Positions 6,001-12,000 of a stretch of DNA of 12,849 bases are shown here, piece by piece (position 1 is the stretch's first letter; each line of letters begins with the position of its first letter). A program made the position numbers. This DNA comes from a virus (Duplodnaviria > Heunggongvirae > Uroviricota > Caudoviricetes): the IMG/VR virus record IMGVR_UViG_2654587686_000012. One strand, given 5' to 3'.

Positions 6001-9000
6001 TCCCATCTTCAGCCAGAATAACGAAAGTAGGATGTGCAACCACTACGCTTTCCTGTCCTTCATAAGCCGGTTCAACTACTACGTGAGCAATATCAGATGC
6101 GGTTGTTGCTTTGGTGCCATCGGCTTTCAGCAAAGCCCCGACAATAAGATCGTCAGTGAGAGGTGAAGCCAGTTTGACGAGGCGATCTTGCAGCACTGGA
6201 TCAGCAGCGTAAGCTACTACCTTACAGCGTGAACGGGAGTTATCCGCATTCACTGCTTTTAATTTTCCATATGGGTTAGCCATAAGATTATTTTCCTTTC
6301 AGTTGTTTAATTTTAGATTTAAGGGCATCAGCAAGACTAACCGCATCAGCCGATTTAAATAATTGAGCAGTGGTAGAACGAAGACTTTCGGGAGTAACTC
6401 CCAACAGTGCGGCAACCTTAATGAGGTTTTCATCACTAACAATCATCGTTTCCCCGTCTTTGCTGATAATCATTTCTTGTTTCATAAATAACGTTCCTGT
6501 TAGTGCCAGACAAATAAAAAGCCCCAATGCCGTAAGAGGTTAATTCTGACCAGCAAAGGGGCTTTTACGTGCGGGCAATTACATAATTGATAAGTTAAAC
6601 TATAAGAGGATTAAACATATCAGCAAATACACTTTTTAAATATACTTGATGATATGCTTAAAGGGTGAATAGATACTCCTGAAAACATGCTCTTAGGAAA
6701 ACATGCGGAATCAATCAGGAATATCTATTCGGGGCGCGGTGGCCAACCGCTATCTTTCATGGTGTGGATGCACCAGTCAGATTTTAAGGAATCACTATTC
6801 CAATCTACTCACAGATTAAATTTTTAATAATGATTAACTACACCAACAGTAATCTACCGTTTCAGAAAATCGTTTTTACAACCAAAGCTTATAGATCCGC
6901 ATTCTATAAAACCCGTTTTGCTATCAATATTTCCAAAGTTTATTGCACCATTCTTAGCTAAACTCTCTCTGCTTGCGGCTAACGCTATGCAGATGATTGT
7001 TTTTGACAACAACTTAATAGATTATTCTGTTACTAACTTCTGTCATTAAATAATAGTTTAATGATGTTAGTAAATAGTTATAAAATATAAATATCAGTGT
7101 AAGGCTCTTTAATATTTTCTGACAAAATAAGGAGCTTTAGGATAAGCATAGATGAAAAATAAGAGCGGGAAGGGCAAGGAGATAACACCTACCCGCTTTT
7201 ATCAAAATTAAGCACAATGCCTAACAACATTCATCAACACAACGTAGAAACAATCAACAATCAAAGAGGGAGTTATGATTATTCTAAAACTTCTTGAGAG
7301 ATGGAAGGTAATATTTGTTAGAGGTTAATGCCACTCAACCTTTGAGGCTATCACCTTCCATATGCAGGGATTTATGACAGTAGAAGGATTAACACCAGTC
7401 AAAACCTTTTTATCTACCCCTAATATCATTATATAATGAAATCGTTATAAATGCAAATGATTTTCATTATCACTTAGAAGAAATAGCACTTTTTGCTAAA
7501 TCATTTACTAATTGCTGAATCTCTTCACTTGCAGCCTTTAACGTGCTTGCGGTGTCCGTGATGGTTCGAGTGCACAGCTTGGCATCGTCCTCAGATAGCT
7601 GCTCTAAATCGCTCACCAGAGAGATAAAATCGTCAAGGCTTACATTCACCTTCATTAAGCTAATAACGCATTGAGAGAGCGTATAATCGCATAAATCTGA
7701 ATAGGCTTGATTTATTCTTGTTTGTAGTGAGATAGTCAGAACTAAAAGTTGTTCCATTGCATTGCTAATATCTTCTTCCATTATGCGTATTCTCCTTGTA
7801 ATGCATCATTAATCATATTCAATACGATGTTAAAAGGTGTCTTGAGCGTCAGCACTTCATCACGGTAACGATCTAATGCTTCGTAGTCTTCTGTTTCTTT
7901 TGCCAGCCGGATTAACTCAGCATAGTTTTTTGCATCAGACAGGATCATCTGAAATAATTGTGTTTCTTGAATATAGCCAATCATTATTTTTCCTTTTTTG
8001 AATATTTTCATTGGGCGCTTATACATACGCCCATCATTTTATTAGTTAGAACGTTTGTTAGAAGCTAATGTATCTTCTAAATGAGCCATCAGATCGACTT
8101 CCGATGCACCACCTACACAATTATTGAAAGCGTTAAATCCCAAAAAATGATGATAGGAGCTAAACCCTAAAAGCTGCCACCGCCTCAGCGAGCCATCAGA
8201 AATGATAGTTTGTTTTCTTGTTCTTGGGCGAAAGTAAATGCCTGGCATTGACTGGATTATTTCTAATTCTTCATCGCTTAATTCAGGGGATTCTGTTTCA
8301 AGAATAAATATTATCTCTTCCCCTGGAATTTCGTTATTGGTGTGTGTCGGTGGACGTTGTCTTGTTGAATTGAAGTTACTGTTTTTTTCAATACGTTTTA
8401 AGTTGTTCTTTTTCTTTCTTCCCATTTTCCCTCTTTTTATGTGGATTATAAAAACTGAATGCCATAGTTACGATGAATATCGCCATAAATGCATTTGCCA
8501 TATGTATTGCCCGATCTGTTGTTATTGATTGTTTGTGATAAACAATTCAAAATCTTTGTTTAATTTCAAAAGACGAAATGTAGTGTGGTTAATCCCTTCA
8601 TAATCCAGCACACCGAACGATGTAAAATGATTTAACCAATGATTTACGTGTTGTGCGCTGTAGCCGCCTAAACTACAAAAGCTAACCACTGTCGGTGGTG
8701 AAAACTCTATTTCCAAAATAGCTTTTAAAATGTTGTATCCGCTTTCAGTTATTTCAATAGTTTTGTTTCCTATAGTGATGTTATAAGTCATTTATTCTCC
8801 TTAGAATGGTATTGAATCGTATATTTCACTTTTTTCTCTTAGAGATATTATCAGATCGTGAAAAGCCTGTTTCTCAAGATAGATATTCTTTGAATCTAAT
8901 GCTCGTTTTACAAAATCTTCTGTTTCTTCGTGCGGTGGCTTCTTGTTATCAAGGGAAAGAAGCCAGTTAAAAATCTTTTCCGGGAACTCTGATTCCTGTA

Positions 9001-12000
9001 TTTCTTCTTCAACGATGATTTCTGAAACATTCAATATTTCATTAGATTCGTTTTCTTTCTCAGAAGGATCAGGTAGTGATGACTCTCTAGGGGGAGTAAT
9101 ATGTGCATCTGTGAGAGGTAGCGCACGTAATTTTAATGGACGTTTTGGGATTCGTTCTCCGACCTCTTCTAAAAGACCGATTTTAATCATAAGACCAATC
9201 AATTCATTAACTGTCTTACGGCTACAGCCACAAACTTTACTTAACTTCGTTTGTGTTTCAAAACATATCCCCCCTGATTTCTCCCAATCTGAAACATAGC
9301 AATATAATTTTTGCATTTCTGCACTAAACTTCGCTTTTCCATCCTCAATATTTGAGGAGTAGATGAATTCAATCTCACAAAAGTAGTGTGGTATATTCAA
9401 AGTTCGGTCTTTAATTTCTCCTGTTTGTTGATCAACATACTGGTATTTTTCACGAATCAATTTAATTTTAGACATTAGAATTATCTCCTTATAAATCACG
9501 CTTAATGCGCTACTAAAGTGAATGAGGATCACTTACCCTTTTTTTGTTTGATGTTCTCTGCTGCTTCAGTAATGATTTCTAACATCAAATCACTGACCAT
9601 AATTTGCCTTTTCTTGGCTTCAGCAAATAAAATCTTGAAAATTTCAGGGTCAACGTGTAGGTAAGTGCGTGGAATTGGTTTCTTGGTTTCGCTCATAGTT
9701 TTCTCCTTCTCCTGTTATTATTCTTTCTCTGCTCCTGCCTTACGCAGTTCATCAATAATTTTTAGTGCATCGTCAAAACATTTTTCACGCTCTGGATAAC
9801 CACAGCGTCGCGCTGTGTTCCTGTTCATCCTTACTTTAAAACGATTGATCTCACCACGTTTCCAGGCTTCAACTACATCCTGGGGAGTGAAATACTTCAT
9901 TAATTAACCTCCTATTCTATTTGGTTAAAAGAAAAAACACCTTGCAAGCCTTGTTGGGCTTCAAAGTGCGGTGCATTGGTTTAATTACTTAGAGGATAAG
10001 AATGTTTTCTGTCCCTAATATTACTTTACCACGACTAAAAGCTTTTGTCAACCCCTATCCATAAAAATATTGATCATTTTCAGTGTGTTATAATTTTTCT
10101 TAGCAATTCGTGCTCTTACGGGTGCTCCTATTCTTCCTTATTCTCTAAAACGCTCTAAAACGCCCTCTGACGAGGTTTTGATAAATACAATACATTCACT
10201 TATGTAGAGGCTGTTTAGCTCGTCAGAGGCTTATTTAAGGGGCTTATTTTGTATTTGTTAGGTATATGGGAAGATGATGATAGATAAAATCTAATTTCAG
10301 ACATCTTATAAAATACCTGTAAAGCTCCTCAGAAGCTCTATAACGAGCTAATCTATTACCGCTAAGTGTTTCCCTGCCTTATATACGTTTAGCTCGCCTA
10401 CGGCTTGATTTAAGCGGTAGAATCTTATTTAACCTTCAACTACTAAAACCATTCTTTCTTTTTTGTTTGTTGTTGGTTGTTGTCTGTGTCTATGTGCTAA
10501 CATCGCTAACGCGTAGCACACAAGGTTATTGCACTCGTCAGAGTATTGCACAATAGATTTTCTCTTAAATAGATTGATGATCGTTAGATTGGCGTAAGCC
10601 TCATCAATGGAACTATTGAAGCGCACAGCGCAAGACTATTTAGCCTTACGCAAGCCGTAGGCTATTTGCACATAGTAGATTACATATTCGTTGTGAGCGG
10701 CATTAGCGAACATATATCTACTAACTAACATCAACAAACAAAAACTATGTGTTATGACAAGCAGTCTAACGACTAACACTCTAACTTGTGCAAGGTTCTG
10801 GCGAATGCCAATAGATTAAGGGATAGTCAAAGACTTCCTAACGGGTATCCCTATAATTATTCTTATAAAGATAAAAAAGAATTATATTATATAGTTTAAT
10901 AGTTAGTTTTATTATTAGTATTATAGATGTTAGTCTTATTGTGTAACCTTTCGTTACAACCAATCATCTGCCGATGTAACGTATCGTTACTACCGATGTG
11001 TAATATCGTTACATTCAATAATTAGTCTATGTAACGAATCGTTACTACAAAATTTCTTACAGAGAGTATTTCAGATAGCTGAATGTAACCCATCGTTACA
11101 TCCATCGTTACATCCATTTATCACATAACATCTGTGCAATGATCTTCTAAAAGTGTTTCTTACTATCAAAAATTAAACATCTAAAACAGGCTTAAATTCA
11201 ATGTAATTGATGATTAATCCCTGTGTAATTCCTACGTAAAAATTCAATGAAAAGTAGCTTAAAAGTGCAATTCTTACTTTCTTCACTTTTACATCACTTT
11301 CGCAAAGCCTTGTGTAATGCGGCATATAGCGCATCACTGCAAAATTGTTGCTCAATAAACGTTCTATCATTTGTCGAACAAGTTTTCTTTAATGCAACAA
11401 AAAATTATTTTTTCAAAATAAACACACCATTTAATAGCTTGCTAATTTTACCAAAACGTAACTACATGCTTCTCATGCAAGACGTGTAGTGATAAAGCAG
11501 GCTAAATCACCACACTAAAAACCTTCGAATTTCGTAGTGAAAAAAGTCCTTTACACACCTAATCAACACGATCAATAATCACTACACACAAATCAACACA
11601 GAAGGAAAATGAAAATGGCTAATATTGGATACATTAGGGTATCGACTGTGCAACAAAACACAGACCGTCAATTAGCTGGAGTAACTCTTGATAAAGTCTT
11701 TGAAGATAAAGCGTCAGGCAAGAACACTCAGCGCCCACAGTTTGAGGCAATGATGAACTATGTGCGGGAGGGTGACGTGTTACACGTCCATAGTATTGAT
11801 CGCCTTTGTCGTAATACAGCCGACCTTCTGGCAACGGTTGAGCAATTAACAGAGCGCGGCGTGTCTGTGCATTTCCATAAAGAAGACTTTAAGACAGGGA
11901 AGAACTCTCCCGCAGGGAATATGATGCTCACAGTGCTTGCAGCAGTGGCACAAATGGAGCGTGAAATGATGCTTGAGCGGCAACGTGAAGGGATCGCCGC

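Follow-up and report, generated by a model that had tools for sequence, protein, structure and literature searches.

The closest described systems are the E. coli phage satellites of Barth, Dunham and Seed (2023; PMC10448857) and the PLE satellites of Vibrio cholerae. PLE, which exploits a lytic myovirus, encodes an initiator, RepA, that joins a conserved C-terminal part to a swappable N-terminal DNA-binding domain varying with the origin repeats, and phage ICP1 carries a nuclease, Odn, which combines a satellite-type binding domain with a T5orf172 domain and has been shown experimentally to be directed against the satellite (PLE RepA/origin; Barth et al. 2021, eLife, PMC8263062). [quoted passage not shown] The satellite status, helper, origin function, and nuclease targeting are predictions from computational work, there as in the present analysis.

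The stretch of DNA analyzed here (the window, 12,849 nt) appears to belong to this same family and to have the same type of RepA. Based upon its gene content and the 2023 listing, it is a putative E. coli phage satellite of ~12 kb. CP041996 and CP029747 carry elements 99.8% identical to it, and both are included in Table S6 of PMC10448857. Pfam and PHROGs identified an integrase, a capsid-like protein, a TMP-like protein (31% identical to inny gp105), a Dit-like protein (48% identical to inny gp106), and a serine recombinase among the window proteins, but no match to a terminase, portal, or protease. The proposed helpers of the satellite are Stephanstirmvirinae myoviruses (phi92/phAPEC8-like). 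Unlike PLE, which was compared by description rather than by sequence and for which no sequence homology is noted, the E. coli element has capsid-like, tape-measure-like, and Dit-like genes of its own; PLE and ICP1 have also been tested experimentally, whereas the account of the coliphage satellite is computational. The putative satellite identity, the terminator-like leader hairpin, and the phage copies of the RepA N-domain and the 55-aa gene were all absent from the earlier note on this DNA.

Operon organization and leader

The operon and its control region comprise the following features:

10023..10051, minus strand, sigma-70-type promoter (TTGACA at 10051-10046, 17-nt spacer, TAAAGT at 10028-10023)
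9927..9969, minus strand, leader hairpin from fold prediction, GCACUUUGAAGCC-loop-GGCUUGCAAGGUG at 9969-9938, then UUUUUUCUUUU at 9937-9927
9718..9900, minus strand, p60, first operon gene, basic (pI 9.3), Shine-Dalgarno GGAGG
9529..9696, minus strand, p55, candidate ribbon-helix-helix DNA-binding protein (hhalign, swap block, phage homologues)
8801..9475, minus strand, RepA, 224 aa, predicted replication initiator (PHROG, Pfam, AF2, pairing of alleles with arrays)
8522..8791, minus strand, p89, possibly another winged helix, accessory (weak wHTH-type Pfam hints)
8042..8425, minus strand, p127, basic N-terminus, accessory (homologue set, codon changes)
7781..7984, minus strand, p67, acidic, pI 4.3 (ORF; PGAP call in NZ_CP041996)
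7470..7781, minus strand, p103, acidic three-helix bundle, pI 4.1 (AF2 model)

The seven ORFs described in the earlier note (60, 55, 224, 89, 127, 67, and 103 aa) are present. They follow one another in the same direction, on the minus strand, and each has a Shine-Dalgarno-like motif 5-9 nt upstream of its ATG. These are real genes, as orthologues are kept in other E. coli elements and have accumulated synonymous codon changes (19 in p67 and 36-41 in p127, the latter vs 26-39 non-synonymous). The proposed TAATG at 7779-7783 was likewise found, with one base common to the p67 stop and the p103 start. However, this is the only overlap among six junctions, the remaining five having gaps of 21, 53, 9, 96, and 57 nt, and therefore "translationally coupled" overstates the organization of the operon as a whole. 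The description of a mobile-element operon with a strong sigma-70-type promoter is supported, and the TTGACA-17 nt-TAAAGT site does exist, but at 10023-10051 rather than within the interval of 7470-9900 assigned to the operon. A TG precedes its -10 element and 10 of 12 positions match the consensus; taken together, promoter-like sites show no enrichment in the window (13 found vs 20 expected). The TTGACA, a -10 element, and the leader hairpin keep their position in 8 related elements having different flanks.

The hairpin and U-run, which separate the promoter from the p60 gene, are shaped like an intrinsic terminator and may function as one. Transcription from the near-consensus promoter would meet this conserved structure first, and therefore operon expression is probably gated at the leader. 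The hairpin is kept in 5 divergent leaders, including a paired change in which the stem has lost an A and a U, but covariation support for a terminator is thin because the stem hardly varies. In satellite P4, the early operon is controlled by premature termination in the leader. The window resembles P4 in having a strong, constitutive-looking promoter followed by a putative terminator ahead of the first early satellite gene, although the two have no sequence relation and the likeness is an analogy only; no CI-RNA-like element was identified in the window leader.

RepA and the predicted origin

Four parts of RepA and two features of the predicted origin are considered here:

aa 1-125, nt 9475-9101, minus strand, N-terminal winged-helix DNA-binding domain (profiles and AF2 model)
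aa 131-165, disordered acidic linker
aa 166-215, three-helix C-domain
nt 8818-8804, minus strand, last five residues (D-S-I-P-F) of the tip Y-D-S-I-P-F
10943..11121, no strand assigned, predicted origin repeats, four perfect GTAAC-N5-GTTAC palindromes at 10943, 10976, 11031, and 11085
10850..10942, no strand assigned, AT-rich stretch flanking the repeats (sequence reading)

The 224-aa protein had been proposed as a winged-helix protein with an acidic tail that could be an initiator or a regulator. Profiles and the AF2 model agree with a winged-helix DNA binder having an acidic tail (C-half pI 4.4), and of the two roles, that of initiator is better supported due to the PHROG initiator families, the RepA_N-like fold, the allele-specific arrays, and the Odn-like chimeras of phages. 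RepA matches PHROG replication-initiator families (phrog_270 at 7.8e-6, among others), and every one of its best PHROG matches is to a replication initiator or a helicase loader. Its Pfam matches are generic HTH families below the curated cut-offs (HTH_36, E 1.3e-4), with no match to Pfam RepA_N itself at E <= 1. The modeled N-domain (pLDDT 80-94) has the RepA_N initiators 4pql, 4pt7, and 5kbj as its top whole-domain fold matches, albeit modest ones (TM 0.46-0.49, E ~5e-3, probability 1.0, 127-129 aligned columns). These plasmid initiators, which include pSK41 and pTZ2162 RepA, likewise bind iterons via a winged helix, while their C-terminal part is unrelated to that of the satellite RepA. A C-terminal [IL]PF occurs in 107 of 120 RepA homologues, spanning three unrelated C-domains. 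To our knowledge, neither an acidic linker nor an SSB-like tip is a feature of RepA_N plasmid initiators. The tip appears SSB-like (D-x-[IL]-P-F; compare DDDIPF at the tip of E. coli SSB, PMC5872125), a likeness limited to a 4-6-residue motif. Together, the acidic linker, helical C-domain, and tip would serve to bring in replisome proteins of the host or helper.

The GTAAC-N5-GTTAC repeats are the predicted binding site of the N-terminal, RepA_N-like domain; with the AT-rich stretch beside them, a candidate DNA-unwinding element, they would form the origin. The array contains four perfect palindromes vs 0.2 expected, as well as a single degenerate copy and one additional half-site, and is located ~1 kb upstream. 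Its distance to the operon promoter is ~900 nt and that to the recombinase gene ~500 nt. A link between the 224-aa protein and this array had been suggested previously, and it fits the data in that N-domain alleles pair with distinct arrays. There are five such alleles (A to E). Each has a different repeat array in the same location, and in every allele type a similar AT-rich stretch comes after it. Homology to allele-B elements is interrupted precisely over 9125-9679 (RepA N-domain and p55) and again over 10943-11102 (the repeats), while the flanks of both replaced blocks are 85-97% identical; the latter segment is exchanged for other arrays where the RepA N-domain differs. Allele-A N-domain DNA is found in 76/5426 genomes and the A array in 74/5426; the repeat-allele link rests upon 9 elements plus these matching totals, which were compared as totals rather than genome by genome. 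Alleles other than A have 22-24-bp direct repeats in 4-5 copies. B-type copies persist in allele D and E elements and at least the GTAAC half-site of A type persists in B, D, and E elements, reflecting either recombination leftovers or a second binder, such as the small protein.

This small protein, p55, is exchanged along with the RepA N-domain inside the 9125-9679 block. The ribbon-helix-helix fold suggested for it earlier is plausible, given an ungapped beta-alpha-alpha register with Arc/Mnt/CopG, although support is moderate (hhalign probability 50%, E 1.6e-4). We consider p55 to be a probable ribbon-helix-helix DNA binder and part of the RepA specificity module.

The same features could be read differently, with the 224-aa protein, alone or together with p55, being a transcriptional repressor or immunity protein, the array being operators for the divergent recombinase or early promoter, and the allele swaps being immunity-specificity swaps, as in lambdoid phages. 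The generic HTH matches, the RefSeq/PGAP name "transcriptional regulator", the typical repressor fold of an RHH-like p55, the suitability of palindromic 15-mers for dimeric repressors, and a promoter-like site (10947-10920) overlapping the last palindrome are all compatible with this. We nevertheless regard it as unlikely, since the array is separated from the operon promoter and the recombinase gene by the distances given above and adjoins an AT-rich stretch, the direct repeats of the other alleles are typical of iterons, and both the PHROG matches and the fold point to initiators. Moreover, the long acidic linker and SSB-like tip would have no role in a repressor, and Pfam and PHROGs revealed no other candidate initiator in the element.

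Predicted phage nucleases carrying satellite-type domains

The origin-binding initiator reading of RepA is also consistent with its phage relatives. Inny gp184 consists of an A domain, then a C domain, then a MUG113/T5orf172 nuclease. Its A domain is 88% identical to the RepA N-domain in aa and 95.5-97.3% in nt, while its second domain is matched by allele-C satellite RepA at 89% aa and 90% nt. This differs from the Figure 8 legend of PMC10448857, which describes the second RepA_N domain of the phages as having no detectable satellite counterpart. Muut gp154 aa 1-123 differs from allele-D satellite RepA by one residue, E. coli chromosomes match the first 310 nt of its gene at 100% identity, and the Mt1B1_P17 N-domain is at least 99% nt identical in 128 genomes. 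In addition, p55 shares 98% identity with inny gp185 and muut gp153, suggesting that two of the phages also acquired a copy of its gene. The phage-satellite domain identity of 88-99% aa compares with 42% for ICP1 Odn/PLE, and the coliphage nucleases have two tandem binding domains, unlike ICP1 Odn.

It is quite improbable that the phage wHTH-wHTH-T5orf172 genes encode homing endonucleases of the ordinary kind, whose DNA-binding domains were captured by satellites, in a transfer running the other way, or shared through neutral recombination; if this were true, the phage-satellite identity would be silent on both antagonism and operon function. The nuclease domain is indeed of the T5 homing-endonuclease type that occurs in many phages, identity alone does not give the direction of transfer, and each of the four phage genes carries the C-type domain, which could be native to them. 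Conversely, the N-domains differ between the close relatives inny and muut, each matching a common chromosomal allele at 95-100% nt, and the Mt1B1_P17 gene contains the satellite linker motif GESSLPDPSEKE. The p55 gene is present throughout the satellites, yet its sole phage homologues are in 2 phages (3/50,697 records). The cognate repeats are likewise absent from the phage, as no A, B, or C repeats, including the GTAAC-N5-GTTAC palindrome, were found in the 147-kb inny genome. Finally, the same pattern is experimentally anti-satellite in the case of ICP1 Odn (PMC8263062).

The remaining operon proteins

The other five proteins (p60, p89, p127, p67, and p103) appear family-restricted and would be satellite-specific. 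p60 is 62-97% identical (aa) in other elements and had no family match in profile searches. Among 1.84 billion representative proteins, it had 12 matches, mostly ~60-aa proteins or shorter fragments; two were TPR/ankyrin repeat proteins that look spurious. p89, 98-99% identical (aa) in allele B and C elements, is possibly another winged helix (wHTH-type Pfam hints, weak at E 0.13). Both p89 and p127 seem to be accessory, each being partly deleted in two elements (L002 and L015). p127 has 53 homologues, the named ones from Escherichia/Enterobacteriaceae, and no Pfam domain; it had been called basic, which applies to its N-terminus only (overall pI 7.9, net +1). PGAP annotates the 67-aa form of p67 in NZ_CP041996, whereas an 81-aa reading from the ATG at 8026 has no Shine-Dalgarno motif. 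The AF2 model of p103 (pLDDT 83.6) has helices at 2-32, 35-62, and 65-101. Its 136 homologues, the named ones all Escherichia, have an indel hotspot around aa 58-70, and it is the fastest-evolving operon gene, with non-synonymous changes equaling or exceeding synonymous ones, as would be expected for a helper-contacting protein.

The acidity reported for p67 and p103 was verified, but the attached suggestion that they are DNA mimics or anti-restriction proteins, here protecting the element or helper on entry, is very improbable: beyond their pI values, position in an early operon of a mobile element, and the fast evolution and indel hotspot of p103, which helper-protein contact explains equally well, their net charges (-6 and -10) are modest for DNA mimics, no anti-defence, Ard, Ocr, or other family matched either one in Pfam, PHROGs, NCBIfam, or PADLOC, and p103 is modeled as a simple antiparallel bundle of three helices, for which the PDB fold matches are generic (designed proteins and MIT domains).

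Implications for the satellite family

The operon finding is real but mostly explained, because the role of RepA had already been predicted in 2023. Relative to the accessible text of PMC10448857, in which the word "iteron" does not occur, the present analysis would add the allele-specific arrays beside an AT-rich stretch, the [IL]PF tip, the terminator-like leader, and a 55-aa gene both swapped with the N-domain and copied into phages. The seven genes probably constitute the regulation and replication operon of a satellite parasitizing Stephanstirmvirinae, including RepA with its predicted origin and an Odn-like phage response, in which helper phages would answer the satellite with nucleases bearing copies of its RepA N-domains.

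A putative replication and regulation module of a predicted satellite

An earlier note had described a seven-gene operon in this DNA, and that observation proved largely right. As judged from its genes, with predictions throughout, the operon is the putative replication and regulation module of a satellite family that the literature has already predicted. Its proteins are referred to here by their lengths (p60, p55, p89, p127, p67, and p103), apart from the 224-aa protein, which we call RepA. The features of the window relevant to this analysis are as follows.

Features of the window
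540-1811: tyrosine integrase (Pfam/PHROG), at one end of the element
1892-2569, minus strand: Dit-like baseplate protein (Dit_like, 1.8e-27), 48% identical to gp106 of phage inny
2617-4458, minus strand: tape-measure-like protein, 613 aa (tape measure, 4.4e-31), 31% identical to inny gp105
9900 to 7470, minus strand: seven head-to-tail ORFs of 60, 55, 224, 89, 127, 67, and 103 aa
9969-9927, minus strand: leader hairpin of 12 pairs followed by UUUUUUCUUUU (RNA fold), past the promoter and ahead of the first ATG
10051-10023, minus strand: promoter, TTGACA and TAAAGT with a 17-nt spacer, the -10 preceded by TG
11609-12166: serine recombinase of the invertase/resolvase type, 185 aa (Pfam/PHROG), near the other end

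All seven ORFs have a Shine-Dalgarno-like motif 5-9 nt ahead of the ATG. The promoter is present as described in the earlier note, except that it sits at 10051-10023, beyond the interval 7470-9900 in which it had been placed. Similarly, the reported overlap of stop and start codons is found at TAATG (7779-7783), but this is the sole overlapping junction, with gaps of 21, 53, 9, 96, and 57 nt at the others. The promoter and hairpin occupy the same position in related elements despite differing surroundings, and one leader variant lacks a single base from either side of the hairpin stem. Downstream, a 940-nt gap of low GC content (31-37%) separates the operon end from the structural genes (6530-7470); it contains no ORF longer than 60 aa, and the capsid and tail genes presumably have their promoter there.

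The element and its relatives

The window is an E. coli chromosomal island, with ≥80% of it present in 50 of the 5426 complete genomes and top matches that are 99.8% identical. Matching gene order was found at other chromosomal sites as well as on free-standing contigs, roughly 12.1-12.6 kb long, from sequencing-run assemblies. Such contigs might represent excised or packaged copies; in one of them (L003, Logan ERR8651292_151, 12,452 bp) the two ends have only 8 bases in common, which is uninformative on circularity. Two recombinases are encoded within this one 12-kb element. The N-terminal part of the integrase is mosaic, since many related elements align to the window only from 1257 onward.

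According to Barth, Dunham & Seed 2023 (PMC10448857), 224 satellites with a modular RepA are predicted in E. coli. Features of this family are a length of about 12-13 kb; genes for a capsid, a tape measure, and part of the baseplate; the lack of terminase, protease, alpA, and Pri-Rep; and an integrase beside att sites, with a tRNA or lysR as the insertion locus. The window has the same gene content (capsid, tape measure, and baseplate part, with no terminase, protease, alpA, or Pri-Rep) and, as in those satellites, its RepA N-domain DNA is highly similar to the N-domain of a coliphage RepA_N-T5orf172 gene. A tRNA-Leu is located ~416 nt past the window end in NZ_CP041996; the window itself holds no tRNA. 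Furthermore, CP041996.1 and CP029747.1, both 99.8% identical to the window, appear in Table S6 of PMC10448857, where the listed ranges span the matched region. Membership among the P4-like elements, PICI, or cfPICI was rejected because none of their signature genes (P4 alpha primase, psu, sid or delta; PICI alpA and pri-rep; cfPICI terminase small subunit, protease, portal, and adaptors) was present among the Pfam/PHROG matches of the window ORFs, which included no terminase, portal, or protease family.

The capsid-like protein gave a weak major head protein match, its L003 orthologue is recorded as Phage_cap_E, and tblastn detected no phage homologue at E ≤ 1e-5. The presence of its own Dit-like and tape-measure-like proteins suggests that the satellite may change the helper tail (its length or baseplate hub) and not the capsid alone. 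Our search for a packaging site shared between the non-coding DNA of the window and the 147-kb genome of inny, a lytic Justusliebigvirus in the Stephanstirmvirinae, returned only 15-18-nt exact matches, near chance. An 18-nt exact match, AGACAAATAAAAAGCCCC, just above chance (about 0.05 expected), lies between window 6508-6525 and inny 62259-62276, joining the start of the satellite structural block to the inny gap between the tape-measure and Dit genes. For the whole window, Rfam returned only two sub-threshold chance matches.

RepA and its paired repeat arrays

Profile searches of all seven operon proteins against Pfam, PHROGs, NCBIfam, and PADLOC gave usable matches for RepA alone. RepA matched several PHROG replication-initiator families (best 7.8e-6) as well as Pfam HTH_36 at 1.3e-4, short of the curated cut-off. 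In an hmmscan of Pfam-A, HTH_36 and HTH_Crp_2 were the only matches, and none to RepA_N (PF06970) was obtained at E ≤ 1; in PMC10448857, RepA_N was assigned to the phage proteins by HHsearch. The AF2 model has a confident N-domain (aa 1-125) consisting of a beta-hairpin and a winged helix. After it come an acidic linker that is disordered (131-165), a C-domain of three helices (166-215), and a flexible tip. The top whole-domain Foldseek matches of the N-domain are the N-domains of the RepA_N plasmid initiators 4pql, 4pt7, and 5kbj, with modest scores: together with 4pta, these have probabilities of 0.94-1.0 over 114-129 columns, TMt of 0.46-0.49, and E-values of 5e-3 to 6e-2, none ≤ 0.001. Searching RepA against PDB sequences gave nothing meaningful.

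Among RepA homologues the C-terminal part is common, whereas the N-domains are unrelated; five N-domain alleles are named A-E here, with the window carrying allele A. GTAAC-N5-GTTAC occurs in four copies at 10943-11099, versus 0.2 expected, along with one degenerate copy and one half-site, and an AT-rich stretch adjoins the array. Against elements with another N-domain type, the window loses homology at two places only: 9125-9679, which covers the RepA N-domain plus the 55-aa gene, and 10943-11102, which covers the repeats. Identity in the flanks is 85-97%. The five alleles correspond to five different arrays, all at the homologous site.

Repeat arrays found with each RepA N-domain allele
Allele A: GTAAC-N5-GTTAC
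Allele B: 22-bp repeat GGTAGGTCACTGTGAGCTAGGG, 3-4 copies
Allele C: 23-bp repeat TTCCTACCTACCCAGGAAATGAG, 4-5 copies in element L008 and fewer in L007
Allele D: GATACCCCTATCAA-type repeats plus B-like copies
Allele E: ACAGAA-N3-TGTTA, five copies

Allele-A N-domain DNA was present in 76 and the A-type array in 74 of the 5426 genomes, these being matched totals rather than genome-by-genome pairs; alleles D and E were found in about 113 and about 173, respectively. An initiator and its iterons would be expected to pair in this way, and RepA would then bind its own array. The link between the 224-aa protein and the GTAAC-N5-GTTAC array that the earlier note had proposed fits these data. In its allele-specific arrays at a predicted origin, the window RepA also appears to resemble RepA_N initiators. 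Of the roles offered earlier for this protein, that of replication initiator is favored by the PHROG families, the modest fold resemblance to RepA_N, the arrays, and the phage proteins that share its N-domain (see below).

B-type repeat copies also occur beside the own arrays of allele D and E elements (L012 7078-7346 and L015 7076-7240, with 5 variant copies and 1 copy, respectively). Allele B, D, and E elements have the same 56-aa small protein; therefore, this protein might bind the B-type repeat.

Between the origin and the operon promoter lie ~800 nt (10100-10900) with no convincing ORF and no Rfam match. This interval contains four copies of a GTTTAGCTCGTCAGAGGCTT-type 20-mer, two CTCTAAAACG copies in tandem, and a number of inverted repeats with arms 170-240 nt apart. 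Positions 9679-10636 are 97.8% identical to element L005 and those beyond are 86% identical; other elements conserve most of 10100-10900. The interval might serve as a packaging site, encode an RNA, or provide binding sites for regulators.

Phage nucleases with satellite-type domains

Inny 120158-120781 aligns with window 9084-9708 at 95.5% identity. The corresponding phage protein, gp184 (367 aa), has an allele-A N-domain with 88% aa identity to that of the window RepA over 140 residues, then a second winged helix, and then a C-terminal MUG113/T5orf172 (GIY-YIG type) nuclease domain. The first domain of gp154 from phage muut is unlike that of inny; its residues 1-123 are one position off an allele-D satellite RepA, and the first 310 nt of its gene are 100% identical to E. 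coli chromosomes. Phages Mt1B1_P17 and BI-EHEC have a third type of first domain, which for Mt1B1_P17 is found at ≥99% nt identity in 128 genomes; the satellite linker motif GESSLPDPSEKE is also present inside the Mt1B1_P17 gene. No A, B, or C repeats occur in the inny genome.

PMC10448857 had already described RepA_N-T5orf172 genes in Inny, Muut, and Mt1B1_P17, and the legend to its Figure 8 states that the second RepA_N domain of the phages has no detectable satellite counterpart. We found that this second domain matches an allele-C satellite RepA (89% aa identity; 90.4% nt identity over 261 nt), so the phage nucleases carry what are by homology two satellite-type binding domains. The coliphages would mirror the phage-satellite domain sharing between the ICP1 nuclease Odn and the RepA of the Vibrio cholerae satellite PLE (PMC8263062), a likeness in mechanism only.

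The small operon proteins

The 55-aa gene and the RepA N-domain are swapped as a unit. Among 50,697 phage records, only inny and muut carry the gene, at 98% aa identity. The earlier note had called p55 ribbon-helix-helix-like. Pfam, PHROG, and NCBIfam gave no match; hhalign placed p55 in ungapped register with Arc, Mnt, and CopG over 38 columns at 50% probability and an E-value of 1.6e-4. A strand (10-16) and two helices (17-31 and 35-51) can be read off its sequence. Its profile matched only a 44-aa antitoxin in the PDB (E 0.49), and a PDB sequence search gave nothing meaningful. A ribbon-helix-helix assignment is plausible.

PDB sequence searches with p60, p89, p127, RepA, and p55 yielded nothing of use, retrieving designed repeat proteins, antibody chains, and beta-2-glycoprotein. 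Deep homology searches with p103, p127, and p60 recovered only the same E. coli element family or a few small proteins resembling them, with no Pfam domain among these; TPR and ankyrin proteins matched by p60 were rejected as repeat or compositional matches. The distal genes differ in the L003/L012 subfamily, and some elements have lost part of p89 and p127. A recurrent deletion extending from mid-p89 to mid-p127 (L002 11662-11971 and L015 9070-9379, equivalent to window ~8170-8665) leaves remnants of 42 aa and 43 aa; it is also found in NZ_CP041996, which is 99.8% identical to the window. Both p127 and p67 have many synonymous changes, while p103 has an indel hotspot and at least as many non-synonymous as synonymous changes.

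The p103 model is a three-helix bundle (pLDDT 83.6) whose fold search returned generic helical bundles only. The suggestion that the acidic proteins p67 and p103 are DNA mimics or anti-restriction proteins found no support, given the generic fold of p103 and no match for either in Pfam, PHROGs, NCBIfam, or PADLOC. The RefSeq name "transporter" for the 103-aa protein (7470-7781) looks like a propagated annotation error because the model is a soluble acidic bundle and no family was matched.

The RepA tip and a proposed mechanism

In 107 of 120 homologues, RepA has a terminal [IL]PF that follows an acidic residue, across three unrelated C-domains and with variants such as IYDSIPF, EDFDIPF, and DDFDIPF. 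The E. coli SSB tip, DDDIPF, docks many replication proteins (PMC5872125, PMC3632105), and we infer from the shared motif that the RepA tip may recruit the replisome. Among inny proteins, a search for an SSB-like acidic tip found only unrelated tails, such as one at the position of ribonucleotide reductase beta.

We see a tentative mechanism, one that we consider rather unlikely to be correct as a whole, in which SSB mimicry by the RepA tip is combined with gating of the operon by the leader hairpin acting as a terminator, bivalent phage nucleases, and a copied ribbon-helix-helix protein that aids them. The disordered acidic linker ending in D-x-[IL]-P-F would imitate the SSB tip, and origin-bound RepA would dock SSB-tip clients at the repeats, whether PriA, DnaG, the chi subunit, or the helicase-primase of the helper. 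The leader terminator would keep the operon off until a helper factor permits read-through. The phage nucleases would target two origin types at once, and the copied ribbon-helix-helix protein might help them to find or silence the satellite.

Implications

The operon itself is unsurprising, being the expected satellite replication module with a central gene already interpreted in print. Relative to the available text of PMC10448857, from which the word "iteron" is absent, the additional points are the allele-linked arrays, the second-domain match, the co-swapped 55-aa gene, the [IL]PF tip, and the putative leader terminator. These make the system directly testable without changing its kind.

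Hundreds of the complete E. coli genomes surveyed carry the satellite family, which would be an E. coli parallel to the PLE-ICP1 system of Vibrio, in an easily handled host and phages. With a predicted origin, RepA/repeat pairing, and nuclease domains, the predicted arms race is open to direct experiments. The phi92/phAPEC8-like phages are phage-therapy candidates, and the pairing of RepA, repeats, and nucleases predicts which strains would block or support which phages.
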